A DNA stretch of 32,000 nucleotides from Pseudodesulfovibrio mercurii (lineage in GTDB: Bacteria > Desulfobacterota > Desulfovibrionia > Desulfovibrionales > Desulfovibrionaceae). The position numbers were made by a program, and so were the translations under genes. Where the stretch lies: assembly GCF_000189295.2 (NCBI RefSeq), contig NC_016803.1:1650001-1682000 (forward strand), given 5' to 3'. The notes beneath the pieces are model-generated. The model was not told the origin of the DNA. It searched no databases and saw only the letters and a list, made by a program, of their open reading frames with translations. The number at the start of each line of letters is the position of its first letter. The stretch's first letter is position 1. Of the stretch, positions 2,016 through 19,232 are shown in pieces.

Positions 2016-2020
2016 CCTGC

Positions 2021-2098
2021 GTCCCCATCGTCTAGCCTGGTCCAGGACGACGGCCTTTCACGCCGTTAACAGGGGTTCAAATCCCCTTGGGGACGCCA
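2021..2098 (+). tRNA. tRNA-Glu (anticodon UUC); integration target of the island array
   Basis: GTCCCC...GGGGACGCCA closely resembles canonical bacterial tRNA-Glu. Anticodon stem ACGGC/GCCGT, loop CTTTCAC, T-arm AGGGG-TTCAAAT-CCCCT, encoded CCA. Confidence 0.9.
2050..2098 (+). repeat. att core copy 1 (49-bp 3' part of tRNA-Glu, within the intact gene)
   Basis: 'acggcctttcacgccgttaacaggggttcaaatccccttggggacgcca' recurs identically at 16226-16274 and 25155-25203, and with 3 mismatches at 28903-28951. Confidence 0.9.
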
Positions 2099-2143: not shown

Positions 2144-2144
2144 T

Positions 2145-2170: not shown

Positions 2171-2177
2171 TCCGGGA

Positions 2178-3233: not shown

Positions 3234-3272
3234 ATTTTCTCCTGCAGGGAAGGTCGCTTACCAGTATTGAAG

Positions 3273-3518: not shown

Positions 3519-3667
3519 GCGACCTAAACCAAAAGGTTAAACACCTGTCCCGGTGCGGGACTCCCAGCCAACCCTTCAGTTTAAGCACGCCGGTATATTT
3601 GAGAGCAAGGAACCGGAAACGGATATTTTCACTTTTTCTACAAGTATTGCTCCTGCCCAGTGAAAGT

Positions 3668-3752
3668 CCTCCGCGCCCATCGGCCACAAGCCGACGGGCG
3701 CGGAGGACGGTTGCCTGGAGATGAATCGCTCAGGCGATTCATCTCCAGGCAA
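3668..3752 (-). repeat. Two long tandem hairpins downstream of the rec2 terminator
   Basis: Hairpin 1 (3668-3706) has a 17-bp stem with a single A/C mismatch that becomes a G-U pair on the minus-strand transcript. Hairpin 2 (3711-3752) has a 19-bp perfect stem and a 4-nt loop. The structural counterparts in island 2 are at 17064-17153. Confidence 0.7.
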
Positions 3753-3760
3753 CCTCACGC

Positions 3761-3791
3761 CCAAAAGGAAACCCCACCGGGAATGGCGGGG
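3761..3791 (-). terminator. Intrinsic terminator of the rec2 gene
   Basis: On the minus strand, ccccgcc-attccc-ggtgggg (with one G-U pair) is followed by 'tttcctttt'. It starts 7 nt after the stop codon. Confidence 0.65.
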
Positions 3792-3797
3792 CTTCTT

Positions 3798-4754
3798 CTA
3801 ACGGGAACTGCCAAGGTAGGCATCGGACACATCCCGCCTTCCTGCGGAATGTCCTGCGGTCACTTCGATTTCGTCACGGGCTTCGGCGTCAAGCCGAGGC
3901 CATTCATCCCCTGCCACGTCATAGGCAGTTTGTTGCAAGACTTTTACTGAAGAGTGCTGATTGGGCGGCTGAAAGCCCGTGTGCTTAACGTACAGGCGGT
4001 GAAACCGTTCATGACGGTTGCTGTGCAGCGTCCACCCACTTTCTTTCTTGGTAAACCCGCAAAGCCTAGCCGCGTAGGACAGTTTTTCCTGCCACTTGTC
4101 GCCCATCCCTTCAGGCATGAGATTATGTACCCCCGGTCTGTTGGATTGACTGATATATGGCAACGCCCGTTCCAGAGCGTCCTGCTGCTTGTCGGACAGA
4201 TTGGTCAGCGTCCTCGGCCGTCCCCCTTTCGTCCCATACTGGACGAGCAGGCTGCGGCCTTCCCTATTCCAGTCCTTGACCAGATCGACTTTGGCCGACT
4301 CTTCTCGACGAAGGCCCAGTTCCCATTGCAGGCGAATTTGGGCGGCACACCGGGAACCGTATTCATAGCCAAACTCGTTTTCCAGCTTGTCGATTGCCCC
4401 CTGCACGAAGGCGGGGGCAACCGCTTTGCTGTTGGCGTTGGCAATGCTGCCCCGCCGGACGTCGAACACGTCATTGGTCGGGCTGATGCCGGTATTTCCG
4501 TAGGCCTTGCAAAGGGCACGGGCCGCCGAAAAAATTTCGGTGATGCGCCCGTCACCCTTGCCTTCTTCCTGCATTTGCCGGGCAACATCCGAAAAGTGCT
4601 TGTTCGTGACATTGGTCCATTTGCGAACCCCGAACCCTGCACGGCGAAGCCGCTTGGCAAAAGTTCGGGCATTCTGACGGACCCTATTCTGCTTCGAACG
4701 CGGGCCGGACAGGGTTGCCCTGTTCGCGCCCAGTACCAGACTGATGGATTTCAT
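3798..4754 (-). CDS. Second tyrosine-recombinase-like protein (Integrase_1/PF12835-like, family named from memory)
   Basis: I chose the start at 4754 (MKSISL...) because 'AGGAAGGAGA' precedes it; the tracked ORF begins 14 codons earlier. Candidate catalytic residues: 'LGLRREE', 'TKGGRPR', 'HSNRHERF', 'AGHSAGRRDVSDAYL'. A paralog lies at 17194-18150. Confidence 0.6.
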   Translation of the reverse strand: MKSISLVLGANRATLSGPRSKQNRVRQNARTFAKRLRRAGFGVRKWTNVTNKHFSDVARQMQEEGKGDGRITEIFSAARALCKAYGNTGISPTNDVFDVRRGSIANANSKAVAPAFVQGAIDKLENEFGYEYGSRCAAQIRLQWELGLRREESAKVDLVKDWNREGRSLLVQYGTKGGRPRTLTNLSDKQQDALERALPYISQSNRPGVHNLMPEGMGDKWQEKLSYAARLCGFTKKESGWTLHSNRHERFHRLYVKHTGFQPPNQHSSVKVLQQTAYDVAGDEWPRLDAEARDEIEVTAGHSAGRRDVSDAYLGSSR

Positions 4755-5519
4755 GTGAATCTCCTTCCTGAAATTCGGGGCAACGCCCCGGGACAAAGCA
4801 GGTCAGACCTTCCCCGTTTGCCGGGAAATGACCTGCCTATGGCGCGAATGCGCCACACAACAACCGACACGGGACAAATCAATGTCCGTTTCCCACTGAA
4901 GGAAAATTCAGGAATCCATTTAATAAGGTGTGCCACCACGCAGGCTCATTCGTCCTGCGCATAAAGCGGTGGCCGTGGGGGAATTTCGACAACGGCAGAT
5001 TTGTAGATACCTGTCGTTTGTCCGGCGGGGGTGCTGTGTTTCAGCCTGGCGTTTGGATGTGAAAGCGTGCCGTTTGGAAATGAACGGCAGCGAAGTCTTT
5101 GGCGTTACGGCATGTTAGTGCCTACTTAAGCGTTCATCAGTTTAGACTTGCGTCAAAACTTATGAACGCGCCTTGGGTGCGTTTTACCTCCTTCTGGTGA
5201 CCGATTTATCCGGTGGATATGCCCAACCATATGACGCCACGAAACTTTCGCGCAAGCTTCTGCGAAGGGATATTTGCTCCTCCCGCCGTTTTTCCAGCGA
5301 GCGTGACGCAAGCAGCCGCCACGGCAAGGCCAAGCCCTTCGGGCGGACGCTTCGCGATCCGGCCTTGCCCCGGCGACTTTGCTTGCGTCGTCATCAACGC
5401 AGGCGACGGCGAGAGGGATGGCGGATTCGACTCCGGCTCAAGGGATATCCTCAGATCCCTGCTCACGCATCCACCCCAAAAAAGCAACAAATCCCTTGCT
5501 ACTGATTAGCAACTTATTT

Positions 5520-5559
5520 ATTAACAGGGTTAAGCAATTAGTTGCTTAACACTGTTAAT
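5520..5559. promoter_or_regulatory. Palindromic operator candidate (C-box-like) upstream of the HTH gene
   Basis: attaacagggttaagcaa - ttag - ttgcttaacactgttaat: 18-bp arms with 1 mismatch, ending 17 nt upstream of the ATG at 5577. An SD-like 'aaggtgg' lies between them. Confidence 0.5.
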
Positions 5560-5576
5560 AAGGTGGTTGATTAACC

Positions 5577-6065
5577 ATGGCTGAAGATGATGACGTTGAC
5601 CTCACCCCCGTGAAGACCCCGGAACAATTGTTGAAGGAAGAAGTCGGGCTTTATCTGAAGATTGTCCGGGAGAATCGGCATAAGCCCCTCAGATGGGTTG
5701 CCCAGAAGTTGGGATACTCCAGCTCGTTCATATCCCAGATCGAGAAAGGGCGCGCTCCCATTCCACTGGATCGGGTCCTAGACTTTTCCTTGGCCTATGA
5801 CCTCCCCATACCGGAGTTCGTTCGTATCGTTCTCGTCACCATGCACAACGACACGTATAAGGCGTTGATGAGCATACTGGAAAATGACCCGGAAATGGCT
5901 CATGCAGCTGAGCAGTGCCACTCGACGAACGATCCGAAACTACAAGCCAAACGACGTAAAGCCCTCAATCCGGGGCTGAGCTCAAAGTCGCTTGACCGGA
6001 TGCGAACATTCATCTTGAAAAACCAAAAACCGGAATACGGGAAACCGATGGCAGGTGACGCTTGA
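5577..6065 (+). CDS. XRE-family helix-turn-helix regulator (controller-protein-like, with a long C-terminal extension)
   Basis: 'LRWVAQKLGYSSSFISQIEKGRAPIPLDRVLDFSLAY' is an HTH_3-type motif. Its stop codon overlaps the start of the methyltransferase gene. Confidence 0.75.
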   Translation: MAEDDDVDLTPVKTPEQLLKEEVGLYLKIVRENRHKPLRWVAQKLGYSSSFISQIEKGRAPIPLDRVLDFSLAYDLPIPEFVRIVLVTMHNDTYKALMSILENDPEMAHAAEQCHSTNDPKLQAKRRKALNPGLSSKSLDRMRTFILKNQKPEYGKPMAGDA

Positions 6066-6790
6066 AAGACCTTCGGAAACAAGACTATCTGGGGGTGACC
6101 TCATCGTCGGAAGACGGCGACATCCACAACAATGACGCCTACCTGTTTCTGGGGAATTGTCCTGCCCATCGGTACGAAGCCATAATCACGGACCCACCTT
6201 ACGAAATCGGAATTGCAAGCAAGGAATGGGATTGTAAAGAGCTACAGATCGACGTCCTGGCTTACCAGTTTCATCGGGTCCTGAAACCTGGCGGCAATGT
6301 TTTTGTCTTCTGCTCGGACTTTCAATTCGGCACCTGGTATCGAGAACTCTCCCGCTACTTCACCAAGTTGCGCAAGTATGCTTGGTGCAAGCCTGATTCA
6401 GTCGGGTACAACAAAGGTATGTTTCAGGAAAGCTTTGAACTCGGGCTACATGCCTGCTCGGACGATTCATACTTCGACATGGGGAATTATTATAAAAATC
6501 ATACCGTCATAGGGAAAACATCGGGAAAGGAACGGATAATGCCTGACCCAGATGAAGAGTGGACAAAGGGAAAAGGCTCCAAGGCCCTTCACCCCACTCA
6601 AAAATCTCTGGAGGTAATCAAAAACCTGGTTTCCGCATTGAGCAAAGAAGGCGACACGATTCTTGATCCCTTTTCAGGCACCGGAACTCTGAGGGTCGCA
6701 GCCAAGCAGTTGGGCAGAAAATTTGAGATGATCGATTATGGATTCCGAAACCACATTGCGGCTTGGGATAGGATCTTAGGAAAAGAGTGA
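6062..6790 (+). CDS. DNA methyltransferase, beta-class N6-adenine or N4-cytosine (N6_N4_Mtase type)
   Basis: Motif IV 'ITDPPYEIG' precedes 'HPTQKSLEV' and motif I 'LDPFSGTGT'. A TTG start at 6062 overlaps the TGA of the HTH gene (TTGA), and 'aggtga' lies 5 nt upstream. There is no ATG alternative. Confidence 0.8.
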   Translation: MKDLRKQDYLGVTSSSEDGDIHNNDAYLFLGNCPAHRYEAIITDPPYEIGIASKEWDCKELQIDVLAYQFHRVLKPGGNVFVFCSDFQFGTWYRELSRYFTKLRKYAWCKPDSVGYNKGMFQESFELGLHACSDDSYFDMGNYYKNHTVIGKTSGKERIMPDPDEEWTKGKGSKALHPTQKSLEVIKNLVSALSKEGDTILDPFSGTGTLRVAAKQLGRKFEMIDYGFRNHIAAWDRILGKE

Positions 6791-6841
6791 GTTCGTTACA
6801 TTGAATGAACGTTTGGTCATATTTGTATTCAAGGACGGAGG

Positions 6842-7915
6842 TTAAGGGGTCATAACCTCAAAAATCCCTGCCCTCTGGCAGCCTTCGAGAAAAGCCAATT
6901 TGAGAAAGTTACTGTTGGCAACCGGAGACTTTGCCGTTTGTTGTTTGATGTCATTTATCGAGTCGGCAGGAACAATTCCACGGTCTTGCATAATACGAAC
7001 TTGCTCCAACCAGTCCTTGGCATCACTACCGCAACATTTTGCCTTGTAACGCTCTTCGATGCCGTACATTTCTTTCCAGGTTTCAATCTCCTCATGGATG
7101 GCAGCTGGGCCGAACGTGAGTTGAATGTCGGTGGACATCAGACGATCAATATCTGGGCTGTGTAGATCGACAGCAATCTCAATTCGGTGACCACCCGTCG
7201 CATAGGGGTAAAAAGACTTACGTCGCCCGACCGTATTGTATGCAGGGTCTTTGCTGAGTTTATAGGTGCTGTTGCATTCGTTACAGGCCGGGGCCAAGTT
7301 ATGAAAATTGATAGAATTGAATGGATATAGAGCCTTGGGGAAATAGTGATCGTAAGCCTCACGCCTGGTGTGGTGCATGCCTTTTATATCACCGAGGCCA
7401 CAAAAAGGACATTTCCCGGTAGTATTAGCGTGAATAAAAGCCTTATAGTGGTCATCAATATCGCCGATTTTTTCCCGTAGCGCCACAAGTCCAAGCAAGC
7501 CCTGAGAATAAAGTCCCTTAAAAAAAGAAGCCAATTGCTCGCCCAGGATGGGATGGATGACAGAAATATCTGCATAGCGAACGATCTGGACAGCAGGGGC
7601 ATTGGCACATATTTTTTCGATGTCGTTGTTGGCCTGATACCACTGTTTCAGATGGCTAATCTGGGGTGATGTCAAATCAGCAAAAAGTTCATAAATTAAT
7701 TTGATATCACTATAGAATTGTTTACCCCGCTCGGGGGCCCTTGCGGCAAAGCCGAAAGAGGAGAGAACTTCTCTTAAGTCTGGCTTATCGTCAAACAGGT
7801 CAAGACTGAAATCCAATCCAATTGGTGCTTTACACCACACTTCGGAAAAAATGTAATCGATGAATTCTTGCATTTTTTCCATCGCATGGGGGACATAGGT
7901 GTAGGCGAACAGCAT
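6842..7915 (-). CDS. HNH/Zn-finger nuclease-domain protein (PtuB-like), last gene of the hsd operon
   Basis: 'GKCPFCG...HHTRREAYDHYFPKALYPFNSINFHNLAPACNECNSTYK' gives CxxC...DH...N...CxxC. I do not recognise the 170-aa N-terminal region or the 130-aa C-terminal region. The start overlaps the ATPase stop (TAATG). Confidence 0.65.
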   Translation of the reverse strand: MLFAYTYVPHAMEKMQEFIDYIFSEVWCKAPIGLDFSLDLFDDKPDLREVLSSFGFAARAPERGKQFYSDIKLIYELFADLTSPQISHLKQWYQANNDIEKICANAPAVQIVRYADISVIHPILGEQLASFFKGLYSQGLLGLVALREKIGDIDDHYKAFIHANTTGKCPFCGLGDIKGMHHTRREAYDHYFPKALYPFNSINFHNLAPACNECNSTYKLSKDPAYNTVGRRKSFYPYATGGHRIEIAVDLHSPDIDRLMSTDIQLTFGPAAIHEEIETWKEMYGIEERYKAKCCGSDAKDWLEQVRIMQDRGIVPADSINDIKQQTAKSPVANSNFLKLAFLEGCQRAGIFEVMTP

Positions 7916-9756
7916 TAACTCTGTCCTTCCATACTGTCGAGAATGGTCTTGATGAGCAGAACTTTTTCTACCGAATCGCCTAGTTGGCGATTGATCTCCG
8001 CAATTACCTGATCTTTATCCTCACCTTCTTCAAACCGGCGGCGGAGGGCGTCTAGCTGCGACTGAGCATGACCGCCAATGGTCTCACGTTTGTCAAAGGT
8101 AGCCATGGTGATCTTGTTGATGGACGAACCCAAGGTATTGTAGTCGGGACGGATCACGGAAACTATCCCATTGGTCTTATTGAATACCAACACCTTGTCT
8201 GGGCTACTGTCTGAGATCAAAAACGGTGTGTGAGTGGTAATCAGCATCTCGTGGTTATCGCCAGCCCCCTTAAAACAGTCGTGTAGCCGGGATATAAAAC
8301 TTGAACGCCAGTTCGGGTTAAAGTGCGTTTCCGGCTCATCAAGCAAAAAGAGGCTTTGGGTATTCTTAAACAACAAACAAAGGCCAAGGCTATGCAACAA
8401 TTGGTGTTCACCGTCAGATAGGGACTTAAGAAGAACGGGCTCTTCCACTCCTTCCTTCTTGAGCCAAAAATCTTTAAAACGGACAATACGTTCATCTGAC
8501 GCCAACGTTGGGACGGTTTCCGAAACATACAGGCTGTCTGATTGATAAAGATCCGACTTGAGAGTGTCGCTTACCGAGAAAAGATTAAGCATCAAAAGGA
8601 CTTGAAACGCCTGAAAAAGGGCTATGGGAGACTTGTTAACCTCAAAGTCAAAATTATTAGAAAAAGCCTGCTTTGTTTCTTCTGTAACGTAATAGTCCAG
8701 ATAAAGTGAATCTGTTGCTTCGTCTTCATATGAACACGTTGCACAGCGCTTCAATCGACTAATCAGCTTATCTGATTCTTCTTCACCTTCGAGCAATTCT
8801 ATTAAATTTGCTCTGTATGTTGATCTAGACTCATCTCCTGTTTCTGTTATCTCGATTGCAGGATGGTTTAGCCCGACCTCTTGCATCTTCCGAGGTCTTG
8901 GATTTTCGCCTCGACTAAATCCAAGCGCCTGGTCCAGGCTGACCTCGATACTTAGACGAATAATAATACGAAATTTTATTATTTCTTCAATTCCGACATC
9001 TTCACGAAACGGCTTGAGGGTCTCCCGATCATGATAGAGTAAATTACAAAGTAAAATTGCTTGGCTGAAGTTGCTATCTAGGTAAGCCAGGCGTGATTCC
9101 GGACGGCCGGGATAGTCTAATTGGTTTTGAAGTGCGTCCCAATATTCGTCGAACTGAACAAAGCGCATCTTAAAAAATGGCAGGCTGAGGATTTCATTTT
9201 CCCCAGACGAATAACCCAGTACAAATTCGGGTAGAATTTTACGAATTTTTTGTCCGTCAATCAGCTCTTCTTGTTCTCCGGTTTTGAGGTCGGTTTGGGT
9301 GACCACGGGATGTTTCCCCAGTTCTTTGGATATATGTATCTCCACCGGGCGTATACGATCTCGGAATTCTGTTACTCCGGCTAATGTTCTGCCAGCCTGA
9401 GCGACTCCTGCGGATGCAGGGGTATAGTAATTCTTGTCTATCAGATTAAATCTATATGTAAGTTCAAAAGCATCTGGCGTAGACACTGACCCTTGAAATC
9501 CATTGGGGTTTGCCTCTTCGTCATAAACAAAGCTATCTGGCTTATTTGCCAAATAAATACATTCCATATGATAAAAAATCGCCGCAAGCACTTCCAGCAG
9601 ATTTGATTTGCCACTGCCATTGGGCCCCGCACAGACAAAAGGAGCGAATCCTTGCTCCTCCTCCAAATCCCATTCGCTACGAAAGCGGTATTCGAATCCC
9701 GTCTGAAGGCTGCGAAACCCTTTGGGATCAGTGATCTTGATATAAAGCAACTTCAT
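7915..9756 (-). CDS. ABC/SMC-type AAA ATPase (PtuA-like; 'restriction system-associated AAA ATPase' type)
   Basis: Walker A 'GPNGSGKS', signature-like 'LSDGEHQLL', Walker B 'LFLLDEPETHFNP', H-loop 'TTHTP'. It starts 11 nt after the hsdS stop. Confidence 0.75.
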   Translation of the reverse strand: MKLLYIKITDPKGFRSLQTGFEYRFRSEWDLEEEQGFAPFVCAGPNGSGKSNLLEVLAAIFYHMECIYLANKPDSFVYDEEANPNGFQGSVSTPDAFELTYRFNLIDKNYYTPASAGVAQAGRTLAGVTEFRDRIRPVEIHISKELGKHPVVTQTDLKTGEQEELIDGQKIRKILPEFVLGYSSGENEILSLPFFKMRFVQFDEYWDALQNQLDYPGRPESRLAYLDSNFSQAILLCNLLYHDRETLKPFREDVGIEEIIKFRIIIRLSIEVSLDQALGFSRGENPRPRKMQEVGLNHPAIEITETGDESRSTYRANLIELLEGEEESDKLISRLKRCATCSYEDEATDSLYLDYYVTEETKQAFSNNFDFEVNKSPIALFQAFQVLLMLNLFSVSDTLKSDLYQSDSLYVSETVPTLASDERIVRFKDFWLKKEGVEEPVLLKSLSDGEHQLLHSLGLCLLFKNTQSLFLLDEPETHFNPNWRSSFISRLHDCFKGAGDNHEMLITTHTPFLISDSSPDKVLVFNKTNGIVSVIRPDYNTLGSSINKITMATFDKRETIGGHAQSQLDALRRRFEEGEDKDQVIAEINRQLGDSVEKVLLIKTILDSMEGQS

Positions 9757-9767
9757 GGTGTTCAGCG

Positions 9768-11366
9768 TTAGGCGGGAGCCACTTGCAAAGAATTAATTCC
9801 AGTAGCGAAAGCCTGAATCAAGGTGCCGTTTTCTATAAGTTTAAAAATCATGTCCTTCAGGCTGTCGTAGTCTGCAATAGTTATTTTGGGCTCCCCATCT
9901 CGTCCCCAATCTTCAAACAACCCATCATGATCCAACTCAATCATCTTGTTCAGAACTTTCTCCAGAAATAGTTGAGCAGAAAAAGTCTCACCAACCCTCA
10001 TCTGCCCGATGCATTCTTTTAACCACTGCTCAATGGTCGGCTTGCGCCCATCGGGCGTCGCCAACTCCAGTAATGCTTCAATGTCTGGAGTCGAAAGTTC
10101 CAGAGACCTAATGGCTGTATTGTCTTCTTGTATCTCCTGAGGTTGATACTCTTCGGCCATAGCATCTTGTTGCTCATCGGGCAGAACAATTCGAGACAAA
10201 TCCAGTTCACCATTGAATGCCTTCTGGCTCAAGGCACCATAGAGGTATTCCATATCGGCCAGGCTTTGCTGATAGCGAGATTTGAGGTCTTCGACCTTTT
10301 CAACGATTGTGGCGAACCTTTCTCGATCTTTGTCCAGAGGACAGATAACGGGCAAAGGGCGTAATGTCTCAATATTAATGTTTGCCCTTGCCGCTTCAGG
10401 CGCTCTAGCTCTGAGCACTGGTTTCCAGAAACGGAGCAAAAATTCTATGAAAACAGATTCTGTTTCTTTGGTTGCAGACTTTGGAGTAATGCCGATGACG
10501 GAGTCAGGGGCATAGGTGGGAATTTGAAGAATGGCTGTTTCGCCGATTGTCGCGCCAACAATTGCGATCACAATCGTGCCGACATCGAATTTTTTGCTGA
10601 CTTTGATGCCAAGCTCGTTAAGCGTCTGGGTATATTCTCGAAGCCGTCCGTTCGATCGACTTATGTCTCCAGTTTGAATAAATGGATAGGCCCCATTATA
10701 AAATTTCGGGTCATTCCGTGGGCGTGGCGAGAACCGACCTCGCTCAATTGTTGCTAGTTCTCCAAGTAATTCCGTCTCCCACCCCATCTCATTCCTCACG
10801 GGATCGCCGAACATCTTCAGAAACACGCTTTTGAGCAGGTCGTCGAGTTGTTGCAGGTGTTGCTTGCGCCGGGCGATCAGTCCTTCTACTTTGCCGAGCA
10901 GATGGGCAATACGCTTTTGGTCGTCGAACGAAGGGAATGGGATCTCTAACCCTAAGAAATCTACTTTGGAAAGGCTTCTTCTACGAGCGACAGCACCCTT
11001 CATCTTTGATGCGTAAATCTGGCGGGCCTGATTAGAACGCAAATATCTTTCAAGGTATGGTATAAAAGTATCATTTGGGGACTTAAGCTTCCAAATGTCA
11101 TATGCTGGGCTTACAATCCCAGCCGGATATTTTGTTTGGAACCCCAGAACCCCTTCGTCTATTGGGAAGCCAACAACTAGCTCATTTCGGTGAGCAATCC
11201 GATATTTGGTTGTGTCTCGACTTGCGACACGCTTTTTGAATTTTTCCGATTGGTCGACAAGCCCATCACTCATTGTGATTGAAAGAATTGGGAGATCCTG
11301 CTTACCGGCTCTATCGGTACCGGATTTATCTAGTAGTGCATCAAGTGTACGAAAGCCCCAGGTCAT
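9768..11366 (-). CDS. hsdS: Type I R-M specificity subunit HsdS with a non-canonical C-terminal extension of about 144 aa
   Basis: It has two target-recognition-domain/conserved-helix units: '...DDQKRIAHLLGKVEGLIARRKQHLQQLDDLLKSVFLKMFG' and '...RERFATIVEKVEDLKSRYQQSLADMEYLYGALSQKAFNGEL'. Its start has an ATGA overlap with hsdM. Confidence 0.85.
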   Translation of the reverse strand: MTWGFRTLDALLDKSGTDRAGKQDLPILSITMSDGLVDQSEKFKKRVASRDTTKYRIAHRNELVVGFPIDEGVLGFQTKYPAGIVSPAYDIWKLKSPNDTFIPYLERYLRSNQARQIYASKMKGAVARRRSLSKVDFLGLEIPFPSFDDQKRIAHLLGKVEGLIARRKQHLQQLDDLLKSVFLKMFGDPVRNEMGWETELLGELATIERGRFSPRPRNDPKFYNGAYPFIQTGDISRSNGRLREYTQTLNELGIKVSKKFDVGTIVIAIVGATIGETAILQIPTYAPDSVIGITPKSATKETESVFIEFLLRFWKPVLRARAPEAARANINIETLRPLPVICPLDKDRERFATIVEKVEDLKSRYQQSLADMEYLYGALSQKAFNGELDLSRIVLPDEQQDAMAEEYQPQEIQEDNTAIRSLELSTPDIEALLELATPDGRKPTIEQWLKECIGQMRVGETFSAQLFLEKVLNKMIELDHDGLFEDWGRDGEPKITIADYDSLKDMIFKLIENGTLIQAFATGINSLQVAPA

Positions 11367-13027
11367 CCAATCATCTCCCTCAGTCCCAGCAGTTCCCGAA
11401 CAATCCCACTTTTAACTTTGCCTAAGCTCTCGTCTTCCACCTCGCCGACTTCTTCCTTCAGAAGCCGCTTCAGAATTACCCCCGGCGCATCATACTTGAC
11501 CTCCTCAAACACCTCCTTCTTGTACCGCGACATAGAAAGGTCATAGCCGTTCTTTTCGTCTGCGATTTCAGCTCGCGGCACCATAAACCATTTCGCGGTG
11601 CGATCTATATCCTTCTCCGTATTCCGCTCATGGAACCGGGCGACGATATCCAGCAAATCCCCATATCCTTCCTGTTTGCTGCGCTTGTCGTCCAGGGAGT
11701 AGCCGTCGGCCTGCATCTCGTAGAACCAGACATGCTCCGTGGCCGCTTGCGTCACTTTTTCTTTCGGCCCCCATACCTTGGTAAAAAGCAGGATTGCGGT
11801 GCTGACCCCGGCATAGGGCTTGAACACGCCGCTTGGCATAGTGATCACAGCCTTGAGGTCGCAACGGTCCACCAATATCTCGCGCAGGGCCTTGAAGGCC
11901 TTGCCCGAGCCGAACAACACCCCCTGCGGAACGATGACGCAGGCAGTGCCACCTTTTTTCAGCAGACGATAAAAATTATCGACAAAAAGCAACTCGGTCT
12001 TGGTGGTGGCTACCGTGAGGTTCTCGTTAATATCGCCCTTGTCGATGCTGCCGGTAAAGGGCGGGTTGGCCATGACGATGTCGTATTCACCCTCCTCAAG
12101 ATAGCTCTTAGAGAGGGTGTCCTTGTAGTCGATGTTCGGCTCGTCGATGCCGTGCATCATCAGGTTCATTAGTCCCAGGCGCACCATGGTGACATCAATG
12201 TCGTAGCCGAAGAGCGAAGCTTGCAGGATGGCCTGAGCCTTTTCGGTGAGCCCCGCAGCCACCGAGGTACGGACAAAACCGTCTTCGTCGGGCTGTAGAT
12301 CCTTGGCCCCGGCCTTTTTCGCCAACTCCGTGACGATGTACTGGTAGGCCCCAAGCAGGAAGCCGCCGGAACCGCAGGCCGGATCGGCGATGCGATGGCC
12401 CAGTTGCGGACGCACCAAATCGGCCATCAGCTTGATGATGTGGCGTGGAGTGCGGAACTGGCCGTTTTTGCCCGCCGTGGCGATCTCGGAGAGAAGCATT
12501 TCGTAGACATCGCCCTGGATGTCCTGAAAGGCTTGGCCCTTCTCCTGCGAATCCTTCTCCATGATCTCGAAGATCTCGTCGATGGTCTTCACCGCCTCTA
12601 CCAACAGGGCAGGCTTGGGGATGATGAAGACAGCATTTTCCATGTGGCGGGTGAAGTTGGACGTTGCCCCGTTCATATCCTTAAGAAAAAGAAAGACCCT
12701 GGTCTGGACGTGCTGGAGCATCTCCTCGGCCTGCATATGTTTGAACTCGCGCCAGCGCAGGGTGTGCCTATCGACAGCGTACTTATCTTCGTCTTCTTTG
12801 CCTCGGAATTCAGGAGGAATCCACAACCCCTCAAATTTCGATGTATAGGGTTCGCCGGTCCATTCAGCATCAGCCTGTTTCTTCTGGTCCAAGTCGTCGA
12901 GGCGCTTCATGAATAGAAGGTAGGTGATCTGCTCAATGGCGGTGAGCGGGTTAGAAATGCCGCCAGCCCAAAACTTGTTCCAGAGCTGGCTGATCTTGCT
13001 TTTGAGTTCGGGATTATTTTGAAGCAC
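11363..13027 (-). CDS. hsdM: Type I R-M N6-adenine DNA methyltransferase subunit HsdM
   Basis: HsdM_N-like N-terminus ('LWNKFWAGGISNPLTAIEQITYLLFMKRLDD'), motif I 'DPACGSGGFL', motif IV 'VMANPPFTGS'. GTG start with 'AAGGA' 8 nt upstream. Confidence 0.9.
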   Translation of the reverse strand: MLQNNPELKSKISQLWNKFWAGGISNPLTAIEQITYLLFMKRLDDLDQKKQADAEWTGEPYTSKFEGLWIPPEFRGKEDEDKYAVDRHTLRWREFKHMQAEEMLQHVQTRVFLFLKDMNGATSNFTRHMENAVFIIPKPALLVEAVKTIDEIFEIMEKDSQEKGQAFQDIQGDVYEMLLSEIATAGKNGQFRTPRHIIKLMADLVRPQLGHRIADPACGSGGFLLGAYQYIVTELAKKAGAKDLQPDEDGFVRTSVAAGLTEKAQAILQASLFGYDIDVTMVRLGLMNLMMHGIDEPNIDYKDTLSKSYLEEGEYDIVMANPPFTGSIDKGDINENLTVATTKTELLFVDNFYRLLKKGGTACVIVPQGVLFGSGKAFKALREILVDRCDLKAVITMPSGVFKPYAGVSTAILLFTKVWGPKEKVTQAATEHVWFYEMQADGYSLDDKRSKQEGYGDLLDIVARFHERNTEKDIDRTAKWFMVPRAEIADEKNGYDLSMSRYKKEVFEEVKYDAPGVILKRLLKEEVGEVEDESLGKVKSGIVRELLGLREMIG

Positions 13028-13057
13028 GTAATGATTCCTTATGGGCTATCGCTTTTC

Positions 13058-15868
13058 CTAGGCCGCCAAACGTTCGGTTAGTTGCAGTATTTCGTTAATT
13101 TCTGCCGGACCAAAGACACCTCGAATACCTTGCGGATGGATCACCGTAAAGGGAGCATTGATGAGGTCTCTTTTTTCGACCTTCTCGCGTTCGATGATGA
13201 ACCCCTTAAGCAGATTCAGGAATTCCAACTGGCGGCTGGAAAGGTTGCTGTGCTGACCGATGAACTGATCAAACGCCTCGCTAACCGTCTCGGGGAAGCT
13301 TCTGAGAACCTCTATCCCAAGAATATGGCGAATGAACTGGATGAAATGTGCTTTGCGATTCTTGTAGACCTGGCGCAGGAGGTCTTCGGTGATGTGCGGA
13401 TGTTCGGCATGGAGCATTTCTGCCAAATCGGCAGCCTCTGCCGAAGAAACATTTTCGCCGTTTTTGATTTTTTGCAGGACGGGATTATGGTCAGTAAGTT
13501 CGGCAATCATCGTCTCGACCATTTCGCGGTAGCGGCTGATGCTGACCGATTCGTGCTGCGGGCCGAACTCTACCCGTTCTTTGTTGTGTAGCACGTCGGT
13601 TAGGTCGAGGTGCACAGGGCCCGGGCCAGTCTGCAACTCGCGAAACTTCATCAACGGGCCGAGGCGGGTGTTCAATTCGTCAAGAGCATCCTCCAGTGCG
13701 TTGACATCACTTACGGACCAATAATGGTTTGTCTGGGCAGCGCGAATCAACTGTTCTTCTGCTTTAACGAAGTTGACGGAAAGCGGCAGTTCGCTGATCT
13801 GCTCGATAAGCCCCTCCTTGAGGGTTTCAGCCTTTTCCTTTTCGTTGCTGAGCCTTGCGAGTGAATATTCTAGAACATCCCGCTCAAAGCGCATGGCCTT
13901 AAAGTCAGCCTCGGAAACGGTGCGGAAGAGCGGCTTGATCTCGGAGCGCAGGAATTCCAATCTCTGGCGGCTTAGCGTTATCCAGAAGTTCCCTTCATAC
14001 ACCCTGCCCAGACAGGCCGCCGCCTCCTTGATGACTACTGAATTTTGCGGCAACTGGCTGATTTGAAAACGCAGCTTGTCTATTTCGCGCTTGGCGATCT
14101 GTTCCTGTGCCAGGTCGAGGGCTTTTTCAATCTTATCAAGGCGCAACCCGACAAGCCGCACAGGCAGGGGCAGTTGAGGCTTGAGCTCCTTGCCCTTTGG
14201 CTGCAATTTGAAATATTCAAAGTTGTCCCAGCAGTCGAGAATTAGGAATACATCCTTTTCTAGGCACCAGGGCTTAGGTTTGCTGGTTTCCAGGAGACGG
14301 GTGCCACGCCCGATCATCTGCCAAAACTTGGTGTAGGAGTACACTGGCTTGGCAAAGACAAGATTGACTATTTCGCGAACGTCAATACCGGTGTCCAACA
14401 TATCGACGCTGATGGCGACCCGAGGCATGTCGCTGTTGGTGAATTGATCAAGCAGTCCGCCCTTGCCGTAGACACGGGGGTCATCGGAAACCAGAACCTT
14501 GGCCAACTCGCCTTTGTGCTCGGGGTAAAGCTTGTCGAAAATTTCTTCCATCCGTCGGGCATGGGCCTTGGAAGAGCAAAAGAAGATGGTCTTGCCGGGC
14601 AGCACACCGTTGTGGTCTTTGATGCACTCCTCCATGAATTCCCTGACAATTAGGGTGTTGGTCCCTTTGTTGATCACCTGCTTTTCCAGCTGTGATCCCT
14701 CGAAGTTGATCTCTTCGACTTCCTTCCCCTCCAGAAGCAGCTTTCTTTGATCCTCCAGCGAGATTGTGCGCTTACTGATGCCTTCCATCTGGAAGCGGGT
14801 CTGGATTTTCATTACCTGAAAGCTGCTCAGATAGGGCGGCACGCTGTTAACCGCCTCTTCAAAAGTGTAGGCAAAAGTGGGGAGGCCCTCTTCGCAATGG
14901 AAGAGCTGAAAGGTGTTGTGGTCAATGATGTCTGTGGGCGTGGCCGTCAGGCCCAGGGTGATTGTCTTGAAGAAGTCCAACACCTCTTTATAGGTGTTGT
15001 AAATGGAGCGGTGGCTTTCATCGACCACTATGAAATCAAAGAAGTGCGGTGATAGGTTCTGCGACTCGTCCCGAATAATGTTGAGCATGGTGGGGTAGGT
15101 CGAAATGTAGATACGGCGGTCTTTGGCGAGGAGCTTTTCGCCTACGTTGGGCCAGCGCGGCTCGTTGGGCAGGTGTTCCTTAAAAGCGGCCAACGCCTGC
15201 TCACGCAATGCGGTACGGTCAACCAAGAACAACACTCTTTCAGCGTGCCCGGCCCGCATCAGGGCATCAATCGTCGCTATGCAGGTTCGAGTCTTGCCGG
15301 TACCGGTCGCCATAACTAGCAAAAAGTCACGTTTTTTTTGTTCGATGCCTTCAAGAACGGCACGTATGGCCCGGATTTGATAATCTCGTCCGGCAATGGC
15401 GGTATTGATGAGTTCTTGGGTCAGCGGCTTACGATTACGACGGATGTACTGAAACCGCTCCAAATCATCTCGCGTTGGAAAGCCTACAACCTTGCGAGGT
15501 GGATAGTTGTCCAGATCCCAAAAATAGATGTCATGCCCGTTAGTGTAGAAACAGAATGGGAGTTCTCCACCCAGTTGCTTTTGGATATTAATGCAATATT
15601 GCTTAGCCTGCTCTCGACCTATTGCTGCATCTTTGCTGGATTTCTTGGCCTCAACAACCGCCATGGGTTTGCGGTCTTTGCCAAGCAAGACATAGTCGCT
15701 GAACTGGTGACCTTCATAGAGTGTACGAGGCTCAGCGACACCTTCTGGAAGAGAGGTTAAAATATCAAATTCTTCTATTACCTGACCTGGATCTTTGACA
15801 TTCCAGCCAGCGTCAGCCAAACGATTGTCAATCAGCTCCGAACGAGTTTGGGCCTCAGTCTTGGTCAT
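13058..15868 (-). CDS. hsdR: Type I restriction endonuclease subunit HsdR (EcoEI-type C-terminal domain)
   Basis: N-terminal 'TEAQTRSELIDNRLADAGWNV' nuclease region. Helicase motifs 'VMATGTGKTRT' and 'FIVVDESHRS'. The C-terminus 'SSRQLEFLNLLKGFIIEREKV...FTVIHPQGIRGVFG' is EcoEI_R_C-like (family named from memory). Confidence 0.9.
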   Translation of the reverse strand: MTKTEAQTRSELIDNRLADAGWNVKDPGQVIEEFDILTSLPEGVAEPRTLYEGHQFSDYVLLGKDRKPMAVVEAKKSSKDAAIGREQAKQYCINIQKQLGGELPFCFYTNGHDIYFWDLDNYPPRKVVGFPTRDDLERFQYIRRNRKPLTQELINTAIAGRDYQIRAIRAVLEGIEQKKRDFLLVMATGTGKTRTCIATIDALMRAGHAERVLFLVDRTALREQALAAFKEHLPNEPRWPNVGEKLLAKDRRIYISTYPTMLNIIRDESQNLSPHFFDFIVVDESHRSIYNTYKEVLDFFKTITLGLTATPTDIIDHNTFQLFHCEEGLPTFAYTFEEAVNSVPPYLSSFQVMKIQTRFQMEGISKRTISLEDQRKLLLEGKEVEEINFEGSQLEKQVINKGTNTLIVREFMEECIKDHNGVLPGKTIFFCSSKAHARRMEEIFDKLYPEHKGELAKVLVSDDPRVYGKGGLLDQFTNSDMPRVAISVDMLDTGIDVREIVNLVFAKPVYSYTKFWQMIGRGTRLLETSKPKPWCLEKDVFLILDCWDNFEYFKLQPKGKELKPQLPLPVRLVGLRLDKIEKALDLAQEQIAKREIDKLRFQISQLPQNSVVIKEAAACLGRVYEGNFWITLSRQRLEFLRSEIKPLFRTVSEADFKAMRFERDVLEYSLARLSNEKEKAETLKEGLIEQISELPLSVNFVKAEEQLIRAAQTNHYWSVSDVNALEDALDELNTRLGPLMKFRELQTGPGPVHLDLTDVLHNKERVEFGPQHESVSISRYREMVETMIAELTDHNPVLQKIKNGENVSSAEAADLAEMLHAEHPHITEDLLRQVYKNRKAHFIQFIRHILGIEVLRSFPETVSEAFDQFIGQHSNLSSRQLEFLNLLKGFIIEREKVEKRDLINAPFTVIHPQGIRGVFGPAEINEILQLTERLAA

Positions 15869-16115
15869 GTCTCAACTGTTCCTGTGTGTTTAACCCTTGT
15901 CCGAGGGCTTCAAATCGAAAATGAATCTATGATTCTTATTCAACTATTGGTAATCATATAACAGGAGGCCCCTCCAGAGAAAAGTTAAAAGACATCATTC
16001 AACAAGGAATACACAGTCCCTTGTTTTCATAAAAACACATGTTCTAACTCTATCCCCAAAAGCCACTTCTCGGTTGATATGAGCGGCTCTAATTTCTGTC
16101 TATCTTTGACAACTT

Positions 16116-16274
16116 CACGTGTCGCCCAAGTGTCATTTTCAGCGGCAACTATGGTTTTTGTGGTAAATATGGCGTTTTCAACCCATTGAAATAACATAGG
16201 TAAGCGACCTTCCGGTTGATTGTTTACGGCCTTTCACGCCGTTAACAGGGGTTCAAATCCCCTTGGGGACGCCA
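16116..16274. repeat. Conserved island right end (about 110 bp) plus att core copy 2 (16226-16274)
   Basis: This block of about 159 bp recurs at 25046-25203 and 28794-28951. Its last 49 bp are identical to tRNA-Glu positions 2050-2098. Confidence 0.9.
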
Positions 16275-16283
16275 AGGAAACAC

Positions 16284-16318
16284 AAGGCCTTACGCAGATT
16301 GCGTAAGGCCTTTTCCAT
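16284..16318 (+). terminator. Hairpin homologous to the post-tRNA terminator
   Basis: aaggccttacgc-agatt-gcgtaaggcctt followed by 'ttccattt'. The stem is the same as at 2108-2136 and the loop differs. Confidence 0.5.
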
Positions 16319-16319
16319 T

Positions 16320-16951
16320 TCACGCGGCACCCGCGAGCGTCATTGCTCCTGGATCAGTTTCCGACCGCATCGGCCAGGGCCGCATCCGGGGCTTCCACGG
16401 CGCCGGTGGTCTTCTTCGTCCGATGTAGCGCTGGGTCGTGGCGATGGACTTGTGCCTGAGCAAGTGCTTCACTTCCATGATGGTCGCACCGTTGTCGATG
16501 GCCACTCGGGCCGCCAGATGACGGATGCCATGAAAGCCGAACGGCTTCACCCCTGCTTCGGCGCACAACCGCTTCAACCACCGGTTGTTCGGGTCCAGAA
16601 GACCGTTGAACCGGCTGCCGAAGACCAGATCCTCGGCGCCGGACACCAGCTTCCATTCGGCCAGCTTGGCTCGAAGCCCTGCGGACATGGGGAGCTCATC
16701 GAATTCCGCGTTTCCGCTTCGACGCTTCCGTGTCCAGTAGCCGACAAGCCCTAATCCGAAGTCGACCTCGCTCCACTTGAGCTTCCAGAGCTCGCTCCTG
16801 CGCGGCGCGGTATGGAAGGCCAGCAACAGCAGTTGCCGACGACGAGGCCCGGCCAGGTCCAGCACCTTGCGGAAATCGTCCAGCGGCGGGACATAGCGCG
16901 GGTGGCGATCCTCGGGGAACCTGTCCACATGCTGAAAGGGATTGTCCCGGT
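16320..16951 (-). pseudogene. Tyrosine integrase remnant (5'-deleted and 3'-frameshifted)
   Basis: Homology to the island 1 integrase starts only at 'DNPFQHVDRFPEDRH...', so roughly the first 150 codons are missing. A 4-nt deletion relative to 2240-2263 changes '...TTQRYILRVKKTTGAVDAL...' to '...TTQRYIGRRRPPAPW...'. The tracked ORF start (16985) lies in unrelated sequence. Confidence 0.8.
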
Positions 16952-17063
16952 GCGGGACTCCCAGCCAACCCTTCAGTTTAAGCACGCCGGTATCTTTGAG
17001 AGCAAGGAACCGGAAACGGATATTTTTGTTTTTTTACAAGTATTGCTCCTGCCCAGTGAAAGT

Positions 17064-17153
17064 CCTCCCCGCCCATCGGTTTGAACCGATGGGCGGGGAG
17101 GACGGTTCCATGGGTGAGAGAAATCGCCCAGGCGATCTCTCTCACCCATGGAA
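17064..17153 (-). repeat. Tandem hairpins, structural counterparts of 3668-3752
   Basis: Hairpin 1' (17064-17101) has a 16-bp perfect stem. Hairpin 2' (17106-17153) has a 23-bp stem whose single A/C mismatch becomes G-U on the minus transcript. The stem sequence of hairpin 2' differs largely from the island 1 version. Confidence 0.7.
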
Positions 17154-17163
17154 CCTCACGCCC

Positions 17164-17188
17164 AAAAGGAAACCCCGCCGAAGCGGGG
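17164..17188 (-). terminator. Intrinsic terminator of the rec2 paralog
   Basis: On the minus strand, ccccgc-ttcg-gcgggg is followed by 'tttcctttt', 5 nt after the stop codon. Confidence 0.65.
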
Positions 17189-17193
17189 TCCTG

Positions 17194-18150
17194 TCACTGA
17201 CAGCTGCCAAGGTAGGCATCGGACACATCCCGCCTTCCTCCGGAATGTCCTGCGGTCACTTCGATTTCGTCACGGGCTTCGGCGTCAAGCCGATGCCATT
17301 CATCCCCTGCCACGTCATAGGCCGTTTGTTGGAAGACTTTTACTGAAGGGTGCTGATTGGGCGGCTGAAAGCCCGTGTGCTCAACGTACAGGCGGTGAAA
17401 CCGTTCATGACGGTTGCTGTGCAGTGTCCACCCACTTTCCTTCTTGGTGAACCCGCAAAGCCTGGCCGCGTACGAAAGCTTTTCCTGCCACTTGTCGCCC
17501 ATCCCTTCAGGCATGAGATTATGTACCCCCGGTCTGTTGGATTGGCTGATATATGGCAACGCCCGTTCCAGAGCGTCCTGCTGCTTGTCGGACAGATTGG
17601 CCAGCGTCCTGGGCCGTCCCCCCTTCGTCCCATACTGGACGAGCAGGCTGCGGCCTTCCCTGTTCCAGTCCGTGTCCAGATCGACTTTGGCCGATTCTTC
17701 TCGGCGAACGCCCAGTTCCCATTGCAGGCGGATTTGGGCGGCACACCGGGGACCGTATTCATGGGCAAGCTCTTTTCCCAGCTTGTCGATTGCCCCCTGC
17801 ACGAAGGCGGGGGCAACCGCTTTGCTGTTGGCGTTGGCAATGCTGCCCGGCCGAACGTCGAACACGTCATTGGTCGGGCTGATGCCGGTATTCCCATAGG
17901 CCTTGCAAAGGTCACGGGCCGCCGAAAAGATTTCGGCGATGCGCCCGTCACCCTTGCCTTCTTCCTGCATTTGCCGGGCAACAGCCGAAAAATGCTTGTT
18001 CGTAACATTGGTCCATTTGCGAACCCCGAACCCTGCACGGCGAAGCCGCTTGGCAAAAGCTCGGGCATTCTGACGGACCCTGTTCTGCTTCGAGCGCGGG
18101 CCGGACAGGGTTGCCCTGTTCGCGCCCAGTACCAGACTGATGGATTTCAT
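17194..18150 (-). CDS. Second tyrosine-recombinase-like protein, island 2 paralog (intact)
   Basis: 318 aa from the SD-preceded ATG at 18150. My manual alignment finds about 22 amino-acid differences from the 3798-4754 product. The extended ORF to 18321 has no counterpart in island 1. Confidence 0.6.
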   Translation of the reverse strand: MKSISLVLGANRATLSGPRSKQNRVRQNARAFAKRLRRAGFGVRKWTNVTNKHFSAVARQMQEEGKGDGRIAEIFSAARDLCKAYGNTGISPTNDVFDVRPGSIANANSKAVAPAFVQGAIDKLGKELAHEYGPRCAAQIRLQWELGVRREESAKVDLDTDWNREGRSLLVQYGTKGGRPRTLANLSDKQQDALERALPYISQSNRPGVHNLMPEGMGDKWQEKLSYAARLCGFTKKESGWTLHSNRHERFHRLYVEHTGFQPPNQHPSVKVFQQTAYDVAGDEWHRLDAEARDEIEVTAGHSGGRRDVSDAYLGSCQ

Positions 18151-19232
18151 GTGAATCTCCTTCCTGAAATTCGGGGCAGCGCCCCGGGACAAAGCTGGTC
18201 GGACTTTTCCCGTTTGCCGGAAAATGATCTGCCCATGACGCGAATACGCCACACAACAACCGACACGGGAAAAATCAATGTCCGTTTCCCACAGAAGGAA
18301 AAATTCTGAGAATCCATTCAATAAGGGGTGCTACCACGCAGGCTCGTTCATCCTGCGCATAAAGCGGTGGTCGTGGGGGAATTTCGACAACGGCAGATTT
18401 CTAGATACCTGTCGTTTGTCCGGCGAGGGTGCTGTGTTCCAGCCTGGCGTTTGGATGTAAAAGCGGGCCGTTTGGAAATAAACGGCAGAGAAGTATTTGG
18501 TGTTACGGAATGTTAGTGCCAACATAAGCGTTCATAAGTTTTAACGAAGTCTAAACTGATAAACGCGCCTTGGATGCGTTTTACCTCCTTCCGGTTACTC
18601 AACCTGACTGGTTATGCCCTGTCGTATCATCTCGGGAAATCGCCGCGCAAGCTCCGGCGGCACGGATTCTTCACCTCCCGCCGTTTTCCCTGCGAGCGTG
18701 ACGCAAGCAGCCGTCAAGGCAAGGCCAAGCCCTTCGGGCGGACGCTTCGCGGTCCGGCCTGGCCCCGACGACTTTGCTTGCGTCGTCATCCGCGCAGGCG
18801 ACGGCGAGAGGGATGGCGGCTTCGACTCCGGCTCAAGGGATGGGGAGCGCATTGGGTGCCATCGCTAATTCCAAGCCCACTTTATTTTTTCCATCGAACT
18901 GTCCGAACACCCAGTCCGATCTCTTATGTGCAAAATGATTTTTGAAATTTGTACGAATGCGCTAGATTGACAAAACAATATTAATACTGCCCTCTTTCAC
19001 TTCTTACGAAGACGACAGAGGGTTCCCCCCTTGGGGAATCCCCGTCGTCAAATAGAAACGGATAGCTGACGCGGGAGGCCGGGCCTGATGGGAAATGAAG
19101 GCATGGAAGATCCAAGCAAGCAGTTCGACGGAGTACAGGCCGTGGATAGCATCTCGTTTGCCGCGGAGCGGGGGGGGCTATCCGAGCTCGGACCATTCCA
19201 GGCAAGCCTCAACAACACCGGGAGACGGTGGG

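Follow-up and report, generated by a model that had tools for sequence, protein, structure and literature searches.

Why would a Type I restriction-modification operon, apparently complete in itself, carry two further enzymes directly behind its specificity gene? The question is raised by a five-gene cassette in a 32,000-nucleotide (nt) stretch of Pseudodesulfovibrio mercurii ND132 (hereafter the window, to whose positions all coordinates and strands refer unless another locus is named), where hsdR, hsdM and hsdS are followed by the genes of an ABC-type ATPase and an HNH nuclease. The earlier note on this DNA, made from the letters and their open reading frames, had proposed that these last two genes are functionally coupled to the Type I enzyme, and comparative genomics now strongly supports that proposal, with the refinement that the invariant partners of the pair are hsdM and hsdS, not hsdR. 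Judging by the loci compared below, the ATPase and the HNH protein are very probably a dedicated and functionally coupled accessory of the Type I modification and specificity genes; on sequence grounds the pair is a specialised branch of the Septu-like ATPase/HNH modules, obligately linked to HsdM and HsdS. That it works as a guardian or back-up effector, in the manner of PrrC or Ronin, is suggested by analogy, and we put the probability of this at roughly 0.5.

Linkage of the pair to hsdM and hsdS

Close relatives of the cassette were collected by an alignment search with the HNH family against contigs from one genome per species, and gene order around the best 80 of the 198 confirmed relatives (L001-L080) was established by tblastn with the five window proteins. 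Every one of these loci that extends far enough shows the same order on one strand, with identities to the window proteins of 72-89% for HsdR, 66-84% for HsdM, 28-60% for HsdS, 47-67% for the ATPase and 51-78% for the HNH protein. Their hosts are Thermodesulfobacteriota, Gamma-, Beta- and Alphaproteobacteria, Cyanobacteria, Verrucomicrobiota, Lentisphaerota, Nitrospirota and others. The junctions are as regular as the order: the ATPase gene directly follows hsdS in 70 of 70 loci (median gap -4 nt, maximum 54 nt), and the gap between the ATPase and HNH genes is -1 nt in 76 of 78 and never exceeds 8 nt.

Foreign genes do enter these loci, in the form of inserts of 0.45-1.5 kb, at the junctions hsdR/hsdM (15 of 54) or hsdM/hsdS (6 of 65) only, and none was found in L001-L080 at the hsdS/ATPase or ATPase/HNH junctions. 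The inserted families (KilA-N, YhcG/DUF1016, Schlafen-AlbA_2 with HATPase_c_4 and Fic-like_C, RhuM with Fic, PDDEXK_3, and Bro-N) are of kinds commonly met in Type I loci, six in number, mutually unrelated and found in different genomes; examples lie at 3682-4506 of L003, 5422-6558 of L017, 3568-4953 of L024, 3903-4904 of L031, 3659-4066 of L033 and 4021-4884 of L065. Outside the cassette no sixth gene is conserved, the commonest neighbouring families being RhuM, downstream of the HNH gene in 7 of 59 loci, and Fic, upstream in 5 of 31. One locus of the close set could at first sight be taken for a free-standing pair, namely L048 (a Methylophilaceae chromosome, 6213-11095), in which, alone in the set, hsdR and hsdM are missing although 7 kb of sequence lie upstream. 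There, however, the transposase (rve) of an insertion sequence occupies the place of hsdR and hsdM and of hsdS from its 5′ end to its middle, and we reject that reading in favour of a truncation mediated by the insertion sequence.

The pair has also diverged together with its neighbours. Across the 44 complete cassettes the Mantel correlation with HsdR is 0.82 for HsdM, 0.78 for the ATPase and 0.59 for the HNH protein (p=0.001 in all three cases), and HsdS, as expected, varies independently. In the same cassettes no catalytic residue of HsdR, the ATPase or the HNH protein varies (the ATPase motifs being invariant or nearly so), so that both nucleases and both ATPases are under purifying selection and the HNH protein is no substitute for a decayed HsdR nuclease. 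Replacement of a dead HsdR nuclease is in fact ruled out, with D58, E73, K75 and the motor motifs of HsdR retained in 44 of 44. The HsdR of these cassettes forms a discrete clade, since its identity to homologues in the plasmid collection falls from 85% (Kovacikia plasmid pB, which carries the whole cassette) directly to 41% or less.

The same linkage is met well outside this clade. The other plasmid matches of the ATPase, only 25-29% identical and found in Priestia, Hymenobacter and Sphingobium, overlap or abut the end of hsdS and are followed by a ‘hypothetical protein’ of 340-387 amino acids (aa), which is homologous to the window HNH family (hhalign probability 98.7-99.9). All of them bear the name ‘restriction system-associated AAA family ATPase’, given by the Prokaryotic Genome Annotation Pipeline (PGAP) and used in E. 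coli and Kovacikia records as well. More generally, the place directly behind hsdS, with an HNH homologue of 335-390 aa next, is kept by ATPases of Bacillota, Bacteroidota and Alphaproteobacteria that are only 25-44% identical to that of the window. A second subfamily, from Bacillota and Bacteroidota, was sampled by contig look-ups and a metagenome scan, and the resulting set of about 60 distant loci was annotated with hidden Markov models (HMMs) built from the cassette proteins. Where upstream sequence is available, the ATPase gene abuts hsdS in 37 of 39 distant loci, and those hsdS genes in turn abut hsdM in 30 of 31; the exceptions are pseudogene loci in fragments, a match that narrowly misses the threshold and a locus into which two genes have been inserted. 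The core common to the whole family is thus hsdM-hsdS-ATPase-HNH. No free-standing pair of this family was seen among about 140 loci, and it is the recurrence in so many independent loci that places the arrangement beyond chance.

HsdR, on the other hand, comes and goes among the distant loci. In 30 of them the sequence reaches 4 kb or more upstream of hsdM; among these, an hsdR gene is adjacent in 12 (in L129 a gene from another HsdR family, whose domains are HSDR_N, SWI2_SNF2 and T1R_D3) and absent from 17 within about 5 kb upstream and up to 10 kb downstream, the search having been confined to this range. In the remaining one, from Bacillus wiedmannii, hsdR occurs only in a separate and complete hsdR-hsdM-hsdS system 3 kb downstream. 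Several of the HsdR-less loci are flanked by housekeeping genes.

Some of the distant loci deserve a description of their own. In L140 (Bacillus wiedmannii, 1-20074) a dense defence island runs from an AAA_15/AAA_21 ATPase with a 386-aa partner through McrBC to an HsdR-less hsdM-hsdS(split)-ATPase-HNH unit and, 3 kb downstream, a second, complete hsdR-hsdM-hsdS, a layout which raises the question of whether HsdR is shared in trans. L087 carries, at 16448-19016, 6 kb downstream of its hsdMS-linked pair, a second and far more distant ATPase and HNH-like pair, which the cassette HMMs match at 7e-09 and 2e-07 and which is free-standing and adjoins nSTAND3/AAA and Peptidase_S8 proteins. Two HsdR-less loci, L131 (11512-13586) and L132 (11007-13081), share a conserved unit of two genes directly after the cassette, encoding a 261-aa HNH_2 protein (PF13391) and a 429-aa protein without Pfam family, and an AbiEii gene is found ahead of hsdM in both L113 and L131. 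The cassette of L088 (Flavobacterium oreochromis, 1282-9981) is decaying, with hsdR, hsdM, hsdS and the ATPase gene each fragmented and the HNH reading frame intact; McrBC lies immediately downstream.

The five proteins and their locus

Profile searches give the Type I part of the window cassette all its components. HsdR has an N-terminal PD-(D/E)xK nuclease (D58, E73-A-K75) and a superfamily 2 motor (GTGKT at 189-193, VVDESH), and it matches ResIII (5.9e-42), EcoEI_R_C (4.8e-31, in the C-terminal domain) and HSDR_N (5.8e-10) of Pfam and REase_I of PADLOC (8.8e-164). By the presence of EcoEI_R_C it is classed as IB-like, in a separate and tight clade that lies below the EcoAI/FtnUII equivalog NF046051 of NCBIfam (269 bits against a cutoff of 550, over residues 4-547 only). 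HsdM matches N6_Mtase (8.3e-56), HsdM_N (1.8e-17) and PADLOC MTase_I (1.7e-165), with the S-adenosylmethionine motif DPACGSG at 215 and the catalytic NPPF at 321. HsdS matches Methylase_S (5.2e-14) and, over its full length (residues 10-527), the PADLOC Specificity_I model PDLC03117 (3.5e-107), and it is as variable as expected, with a mean pairwise identity of 35% among cassettes. With an HsdR nuclease and motor, an HsdM that has both motifs and an HsdS, all encoded together, the Type I restriction-modification system of the window is complete, type IB-like and apparently active.

The ATPase has a Walker A motif (GPNGSGKS, 44-51), a signature motif (LSDGEHQ, 446-452), the stretch LFLLDEPETHFNP at 469-481, of which 469-476 form Walker B, and TTHTP at 507-511, with H509 as H-loop. 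Its Pfam matches are AAA_21, AAA_15 and SMC_N. It is a clear member of NCBIfam TIGR04435, ‘restriction system-associated AAA family ATPase’ (868.4 bits, cutoff 300, residues 1-610 of 613), and fails the NCBIfam PtuA equivalog (40.5 bits, cutoff 500), so that the resemblance to Septu pointed out in the earlier note probably does not amount to a canonical PtuA. PtuA is nevertheless what it resembles most. In PADLOC the PtuA model PDLC00293 matches the window ATPase at 6.5e-47 and outranks all other models in each of the clades tested, with 145-186 bits and, in the distant clades, close to full length. Against the PDB, the family profile best matches PtuA chains (2.4e-13 to 5.5e-08, in the C-terminal half only), which come from Septu and from retron I-A effectors, and next AriA of PARIS (2.4e-08). 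Matches to AriA are weaker than those to PtuA (56.6 bits).

The HNH protein, identical to DND132_1496 of P. mercurii, is harder to place. It consists of an N-terminal helical domain (13-163), a zinc-finger HNH core at about 166-220 (CPFCG...DHY...N...CxxCN), whose motif residues are C169-x2-C172, D189-H190, N203/N206 and C211-x2-C214-N215, and a C-terminal part with a beta-hairpin and a helical domain (246-354). No Pfam or NCBIfam model matches it. PADLOC returns PDC-M01B (1.1e-14), PDC-M62B (1.2e-13) and PtuB (7.9e-09), of which the first two are weak matches (40-60 bits) partly reaching past the HNH core and the third is limited to that core of about 65 aa (residues 156-226), so that this protein is no canonical PtuB. 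The outcome on which the earlier note would have given up the coupling, canonical PtuA and PtuB whose homologues are not enriched beside hsd genes, is thus the reverse of what the comparison shows. A search of PDB sequences with the HNH profile gave chance matches only (E about 0.13). Modelling with AlphaFold2 from an alignment of 93 sequences of both subfamilies gave a predicted local distance difference test score (pLDDT) of 93.6 and a predicted template modelling score of 0.89, and this model was used in place of a poor one (pLDDT 61) from a shallow alignment of 17 sequences; Foldseek found nothing resembling it at E<0.5 in BFVD (best 0.51) or in the PDB (best 2.0), where structures of PtuB are present. 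The family itself is large, with 371 clusters at 50% identity (E<=1e-30), almost all of 335-380 aa and matching over the full length, and no phage-encoded homologue was found in 50,697 phage records. Type I systems rank with the most thoroughly studied forms of defence, and yet there is a widespread branch of them, found in many phyla, that has two extra and strictly conserved enzymes.

The junctions of the window cassette were read directly. The stop codon TAG of hsdR is separated from the GTG of hsdM by 30 nt that include a Shine-Dalgarno-like AAGGAA, hsdM and hsdS share an ATGA overlap (-4 nt), the TAA of hsdS is followed after 11 nt by the ATG of the ATPase gene, and the ATPase and HNH genes meet in a TAATG overlap (-1 nt). 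The earlier note had thus read the spacing, the identities of the five genes and the ABC-type ATPase and HNH motifs correctly, and it was also right that the HNH protein (Table 1) is unusually long. The five genes would form a single transcription unit. No open reading frame of at least 80 aa occurs in the leader upstream of hsdR, and a consensus scan of the region for promoters and terminators gave site counts not above those of shuffled sequence, a level that neither supports nor excludes internal promoters within the coding sequence. The terminator-like hairpin at the end of the HNH gene may mark the end of the operon but, with the number of such sites at the shuffled level, is a lead only.

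Table 1. The cassette and associated features, in positions of the 32,000-nt window
Feature	Position	Strand	Remarks
hsdR	13058..15868	-	936 aa; Type I restriction subunit, type IB-like
hsdM	11363..13027	-	554 aa, GTG start; N6-adenine DNA methyltransferase subunit
hsdS	9768..11366	-	532 aa; specificity subunit
ABC-type (PtuA/AriA-like) ATPase, NCBIfam TIGR04435	7915..9756	-	613 aa
HNH nuclease partner	6842..7915	-	357 aa
Non-coding leader 5′ of hsdR, presumed promoter region	15869..16225	-	inferred only; ends at duplicated tRNA-Glu 3′ segment
Weak terminator-like hairpin CTGCC-AGAG-GGCAG + T-run	6868..6881	-	consensus scan; overlaps last HNH-gene codons
tRNA-Glu(TTC), island integration site	2021..2098	+	ARAGORN; 3′ 49 nt repeated at 16226-16274

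The cassette is part of a mobile element. A direct repeat, composed of the tRNA-Glu 3′ end and the adjacent end of an integrase gene, occurs at 2050-2428 and again, 14.2 kb away, at 16226-16600 (90-93% identity), and there are two related integrase modules, one formed by 2178-3233 with 3798-4796 and the other by 16320-16985 with 17194-18321. Repeat and modules together indicate two islands in tandem at tRNA-Glu. Guanine plus cytosine content is 0.44-0.56 inside the island and 0.57-0.69 in the flanks, and the cassette is cargo of the first, low-GC island (about 2099-16225). On the same island, at 5577-6790 of the plus strand and convergent with the HNH gene, the gene of a 162-aa HTH_3/HTH_31 protein overlaps the start of that of a 242-aa N6_N4 DNA methyltransferase; no cognate nuclease was identified for this pair, which could represent an orphan Type II methyltransferase or one linked to a controller.

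The pair was found in 96 of 5,426 complete E. coli genomes, with hsdS matched as well in the records listed, which brings the cassette within reach of experiment. In 11 of the 96 the DNA of the variant is 90-95% identical to the Citrobacter query, and in the other 85 the identity is 60-80%. Enterotoxigenic E. coli TW11681 (L139, 3977-12879; NZ_CP035855.1, 2354994-2363896) has the full five-gene cassette on an island at ssrA that resembles an integrative and conjugative element.

A proposed guardian mechanism and its alternatives

The physical association of the pair with HsdM and HsdS, its trigger and its substrate we infer as follows, from the parallels of PrrC, Ronin, PARIS and Septu. The five genes are a horizontally mobile cassette in which an ATPase-HNH effector is translationally coupled to hsdM-hsdS. 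An oligomer of the ATPase would keep the HNH nuclease inactive and at the same time monitor the HsdM2-HsdS complex. Should Ocr, ArdA or another DNA mimic among the phage anti-restriction factors, or an Stp-like peptide, block this complex, or should it fail in some other way, the ATPase could license the HNH domain to cut nucleic acid, either DNA or, as in the retron-linked PtuAB, tRNA, which would result in a second line of defence or in abortive infection. We favour such a guardian because the characterised relatives of the ATPase act as sensors that gate nucleases, because PrrC and Ronin, the two known effectors with an obligate tie to HsdM/S, work in this way, and because the HsdR of the window clade is competent.

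Some observations weigh against this view. In L048, where hsdM and half of hsdS are gone, the reading frames of the ATPase and the HNH protein are intact, which a simple model of HsdM and HsdS as antitoxin would not predict, though the two genes are possibly not expressed there. The HNH partner shares with PtuB only its core and has no structural relative, so that the transfer of the Septu mechanism to it is weakly grounded. The HsdM of HsdR-less loci retains its NPPF, and in two of these loci, L087 and L143, a small helix-turn-helix gene lies before hsdM, a pattern which fits an autonomous restriction-modification-like unit at least equally well.

This pattern belongs to an alternative that also fits the data and that we hold to be possible, though less probable than the guardian: that HsdM2-HsdS, on meeting unmethylated sites, recruits the ATPase and the HNH protein, and foreign DNA is cut independently of HsdR. 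The five-gene form would then be a shared core of specificity and methylation serving two nuclease motors, and in the HsdR-less loci the ATPase and HNH protein would be the sole restriction component of a distinct Type I-like class of restriction-modification. The 17 of 30 distant loci without hsdR in the range fetched, some of them flanked by housekeeping genes, are in line with this, although hsdR could lie elsewhere in those genomes. The retention of NPPF by HsdM in such loci agrees with it as well, but Ronin keeps NPPF too, even though methylation is dispensable for it. The helix-turn-helix gene of L087 and L143 could be a C-protein-like controller, the translational coupling of the ATPase gene to hsdS suggests stoichiometric co-assembly, and the loss of M and S in L048 with the pair kept would be harmless. 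Against these stand an HsdR that, in the window clade, is always there, has an intact nuclease and motor and needs no second nuclease for restriction, and ATPase relatives that are, where characterised, sensors of infection rather than sequence-guided restriction enzymes. In addition, neither protein resembles the C-terminal domain by which HsdR binds HsdM: a mimic of this domain was looked for by hhalign of EcoEI_R_C against both families and rejected (probability <1%). If this alternative were nonetheless true, ‘orphan’ hsdM-hsdS loci would have to be reread, a new M-S-ATPase-HNH class would be hidden inside ‘Type I’ annotations, and a programmable specificity subunit would turn out to guide a nuclease of new architecture.

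That the pair is just an ordinary, self-sufficient system of Septu type, co-transferred and co-transcribed with the Type I genes as defence genes tend to cluster, seems very unlikely in view of the comparative evidence. The idea is a natural one, as the best PADLOC matches of the two proteins are PtuA and PtuB/PDC models, defence systems are often found embedded in Type I loci (the ‘guilt by embedding’ of Payne et al., bioRxiv 10.1101/2024.01.29.577857), and unrelated genes of the KilA-N, YhcG, RhuM/Fic and Schlafen-like kinds do ride in these very loci. Canonical Septu, however, is overwhelmingly free-standing, with 0.7% of Septu systems embedded in Hma (bioRxiv 10.1101/2024.01.29.577857). 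The true riders of our loci, moreover, are sporadic and sit at the R/M and M/S junctions, whereas the pair is fixed at the 3′ end of hsdS in about 140 loci, down to 25% identity, and co-diverges with HsdR and HsdM. About equally improbable is a non-defence role, be it restriction alleviation, removal of stalled complexes, processing of ends after HsdR or addiction to the island: Type I enzymes do need control once unmodified host sites arise, ABC/SMC-type ATPases often work on DNA ends or stalled complexes, and the cassette travels on mobile islands and integrative and conjugative elements, but loci without HsdR would leave nothing to be alleviated or processed, the closest relatives are without exception effectors against phage, and Pfam and NCBIfam detect no repair or regulatory domain in either protein.

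The guardian reading remains the one that we prefer. If it is true, Septu-like ATPase/HNH machines gain a defined trigger. Under both mechanisms it holds that annotation pipelines and defence finders at present split the unit into a ‘Type I RM’ system and ‘Septu-like’ or ‘hypothetical’ genes.

Comparison with known systems

An association of this ATPase with restriction is already encoded in the family name given by NCBIfam, and dyads of an ABC ATPase and a nuclease near restriction-modification genes are already noted in general terms in comparative studies. TIGR04435 is, even so, an annotation model only (of the hypoth_equivalog type), with no model for the HNH partner beside it; no mention of it or of its name was found in the literature, nor any experimental study of the pair. 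The M-S-ATPase-HNH core with optional HsdR appears not to have been described previously.

The same domain logic recurs in the PADLOC candidates PDC-M01 and PDC-M62, pairs of an ATPase and an HNH-like protein embedded in restriction-modification, BREX and DISARM loci, of which the literature found on PDC-M01 consists of genome surveys only. Their ATPase models PDC-M01A (1.5e-15) and PDC-M62A (4.4e-16) match the window ATPase less well than do the PtuA models, and with scores far below family level the candidates would be remote relatives at best. Membership of MADS was considered and rejected, at 122.7 bits against a cutoff of 720 for NF047738 (MAD2) and 26.1 against 420 for NF047739 (MAD3). 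In PARIS, AriA comes second to PtuA among the solved relatives of the ATPase, and the system senses anti-restriction proteins, with its nuclease under ATPase control as in Septu (PMC12065111); this nuclease, AriB, though, is of the Toprim (DUF4435) type and not HNH, and PARIS is free-standing or carried on phage satellites, not linked to hsdS.

Septu, including the PtuAB of type I-A retrons, likewise consists of two overlapping genes for an ABC ATPase and an HNH nuclease, and it provides both the best models and structures for the ATPase and, in its PtuB HMMs, a match to the HNH core. In it, hexamers of PtuA hold PtuB under the control of ATP, as a PtuA6:PtuB2 complex (PMC12065111), and the PtuAB of Retron-Eco7 is reported to degrade tRNA-Tyr (PMC12673091). 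The partner differs: PtuB has some 200-250 aa, whereas the HNH protein has about 350, with extra helical domains at both its N- and C-terminal sides and no match in sequence or fold to solved PtuB. Likewise, Septu is autonomous or linked to a retron, whereas the pair of the window family always comes after hsdM-hsdS.

In its position the pair resembles PrrC, the ABC-ATPase-based nuclease effector (RloC being a relative) that lies directly after hsdS in the Type IC system EcoprrI. PrrC is almost exclusive to Type I loci (bioRxiv 10.1101/2024.01.29.577857), and it is silenced by the restriction-modification complex until the phage anti-restriction factor Stp switches it on (PMC12707154). It is, however, a single polypeptide of a different ABC family with a C-terminal anticodon-nuclease domain, and PrrC and RloC models are absent from the best PADLOC matches of the window proteins; the window ATPase stops with the C-terminal region of its ABC part, the nuclease is a separate HNH protein, and the host system is IB-like with the order R-M-S-ATPase-HNH.

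Ronin, the ronA-hsdS-hsdM decoy of E. coli ECOR55, shares with the window family an effector tied to hsdM and hsdS, many loci without hsdR, and the conservation of NPPF. Experiments on it have shown that anti-restriction proteins release its effector, whose gene never occurs apart from hsdM/hsdS and mostly has no hsdR beside it (bioRxiv 10.1101/2023.04.06.535777). RonA is a membrane toxin of 61 aa, neither ATPase nor nuclease, whereas the window clade keeps an intact HsdR beside its two enzymes. Should the guardian reading prove right, the pair would be, after PrrC and Ronin, the third independent suicide or back-up effector wired to a Type I system.

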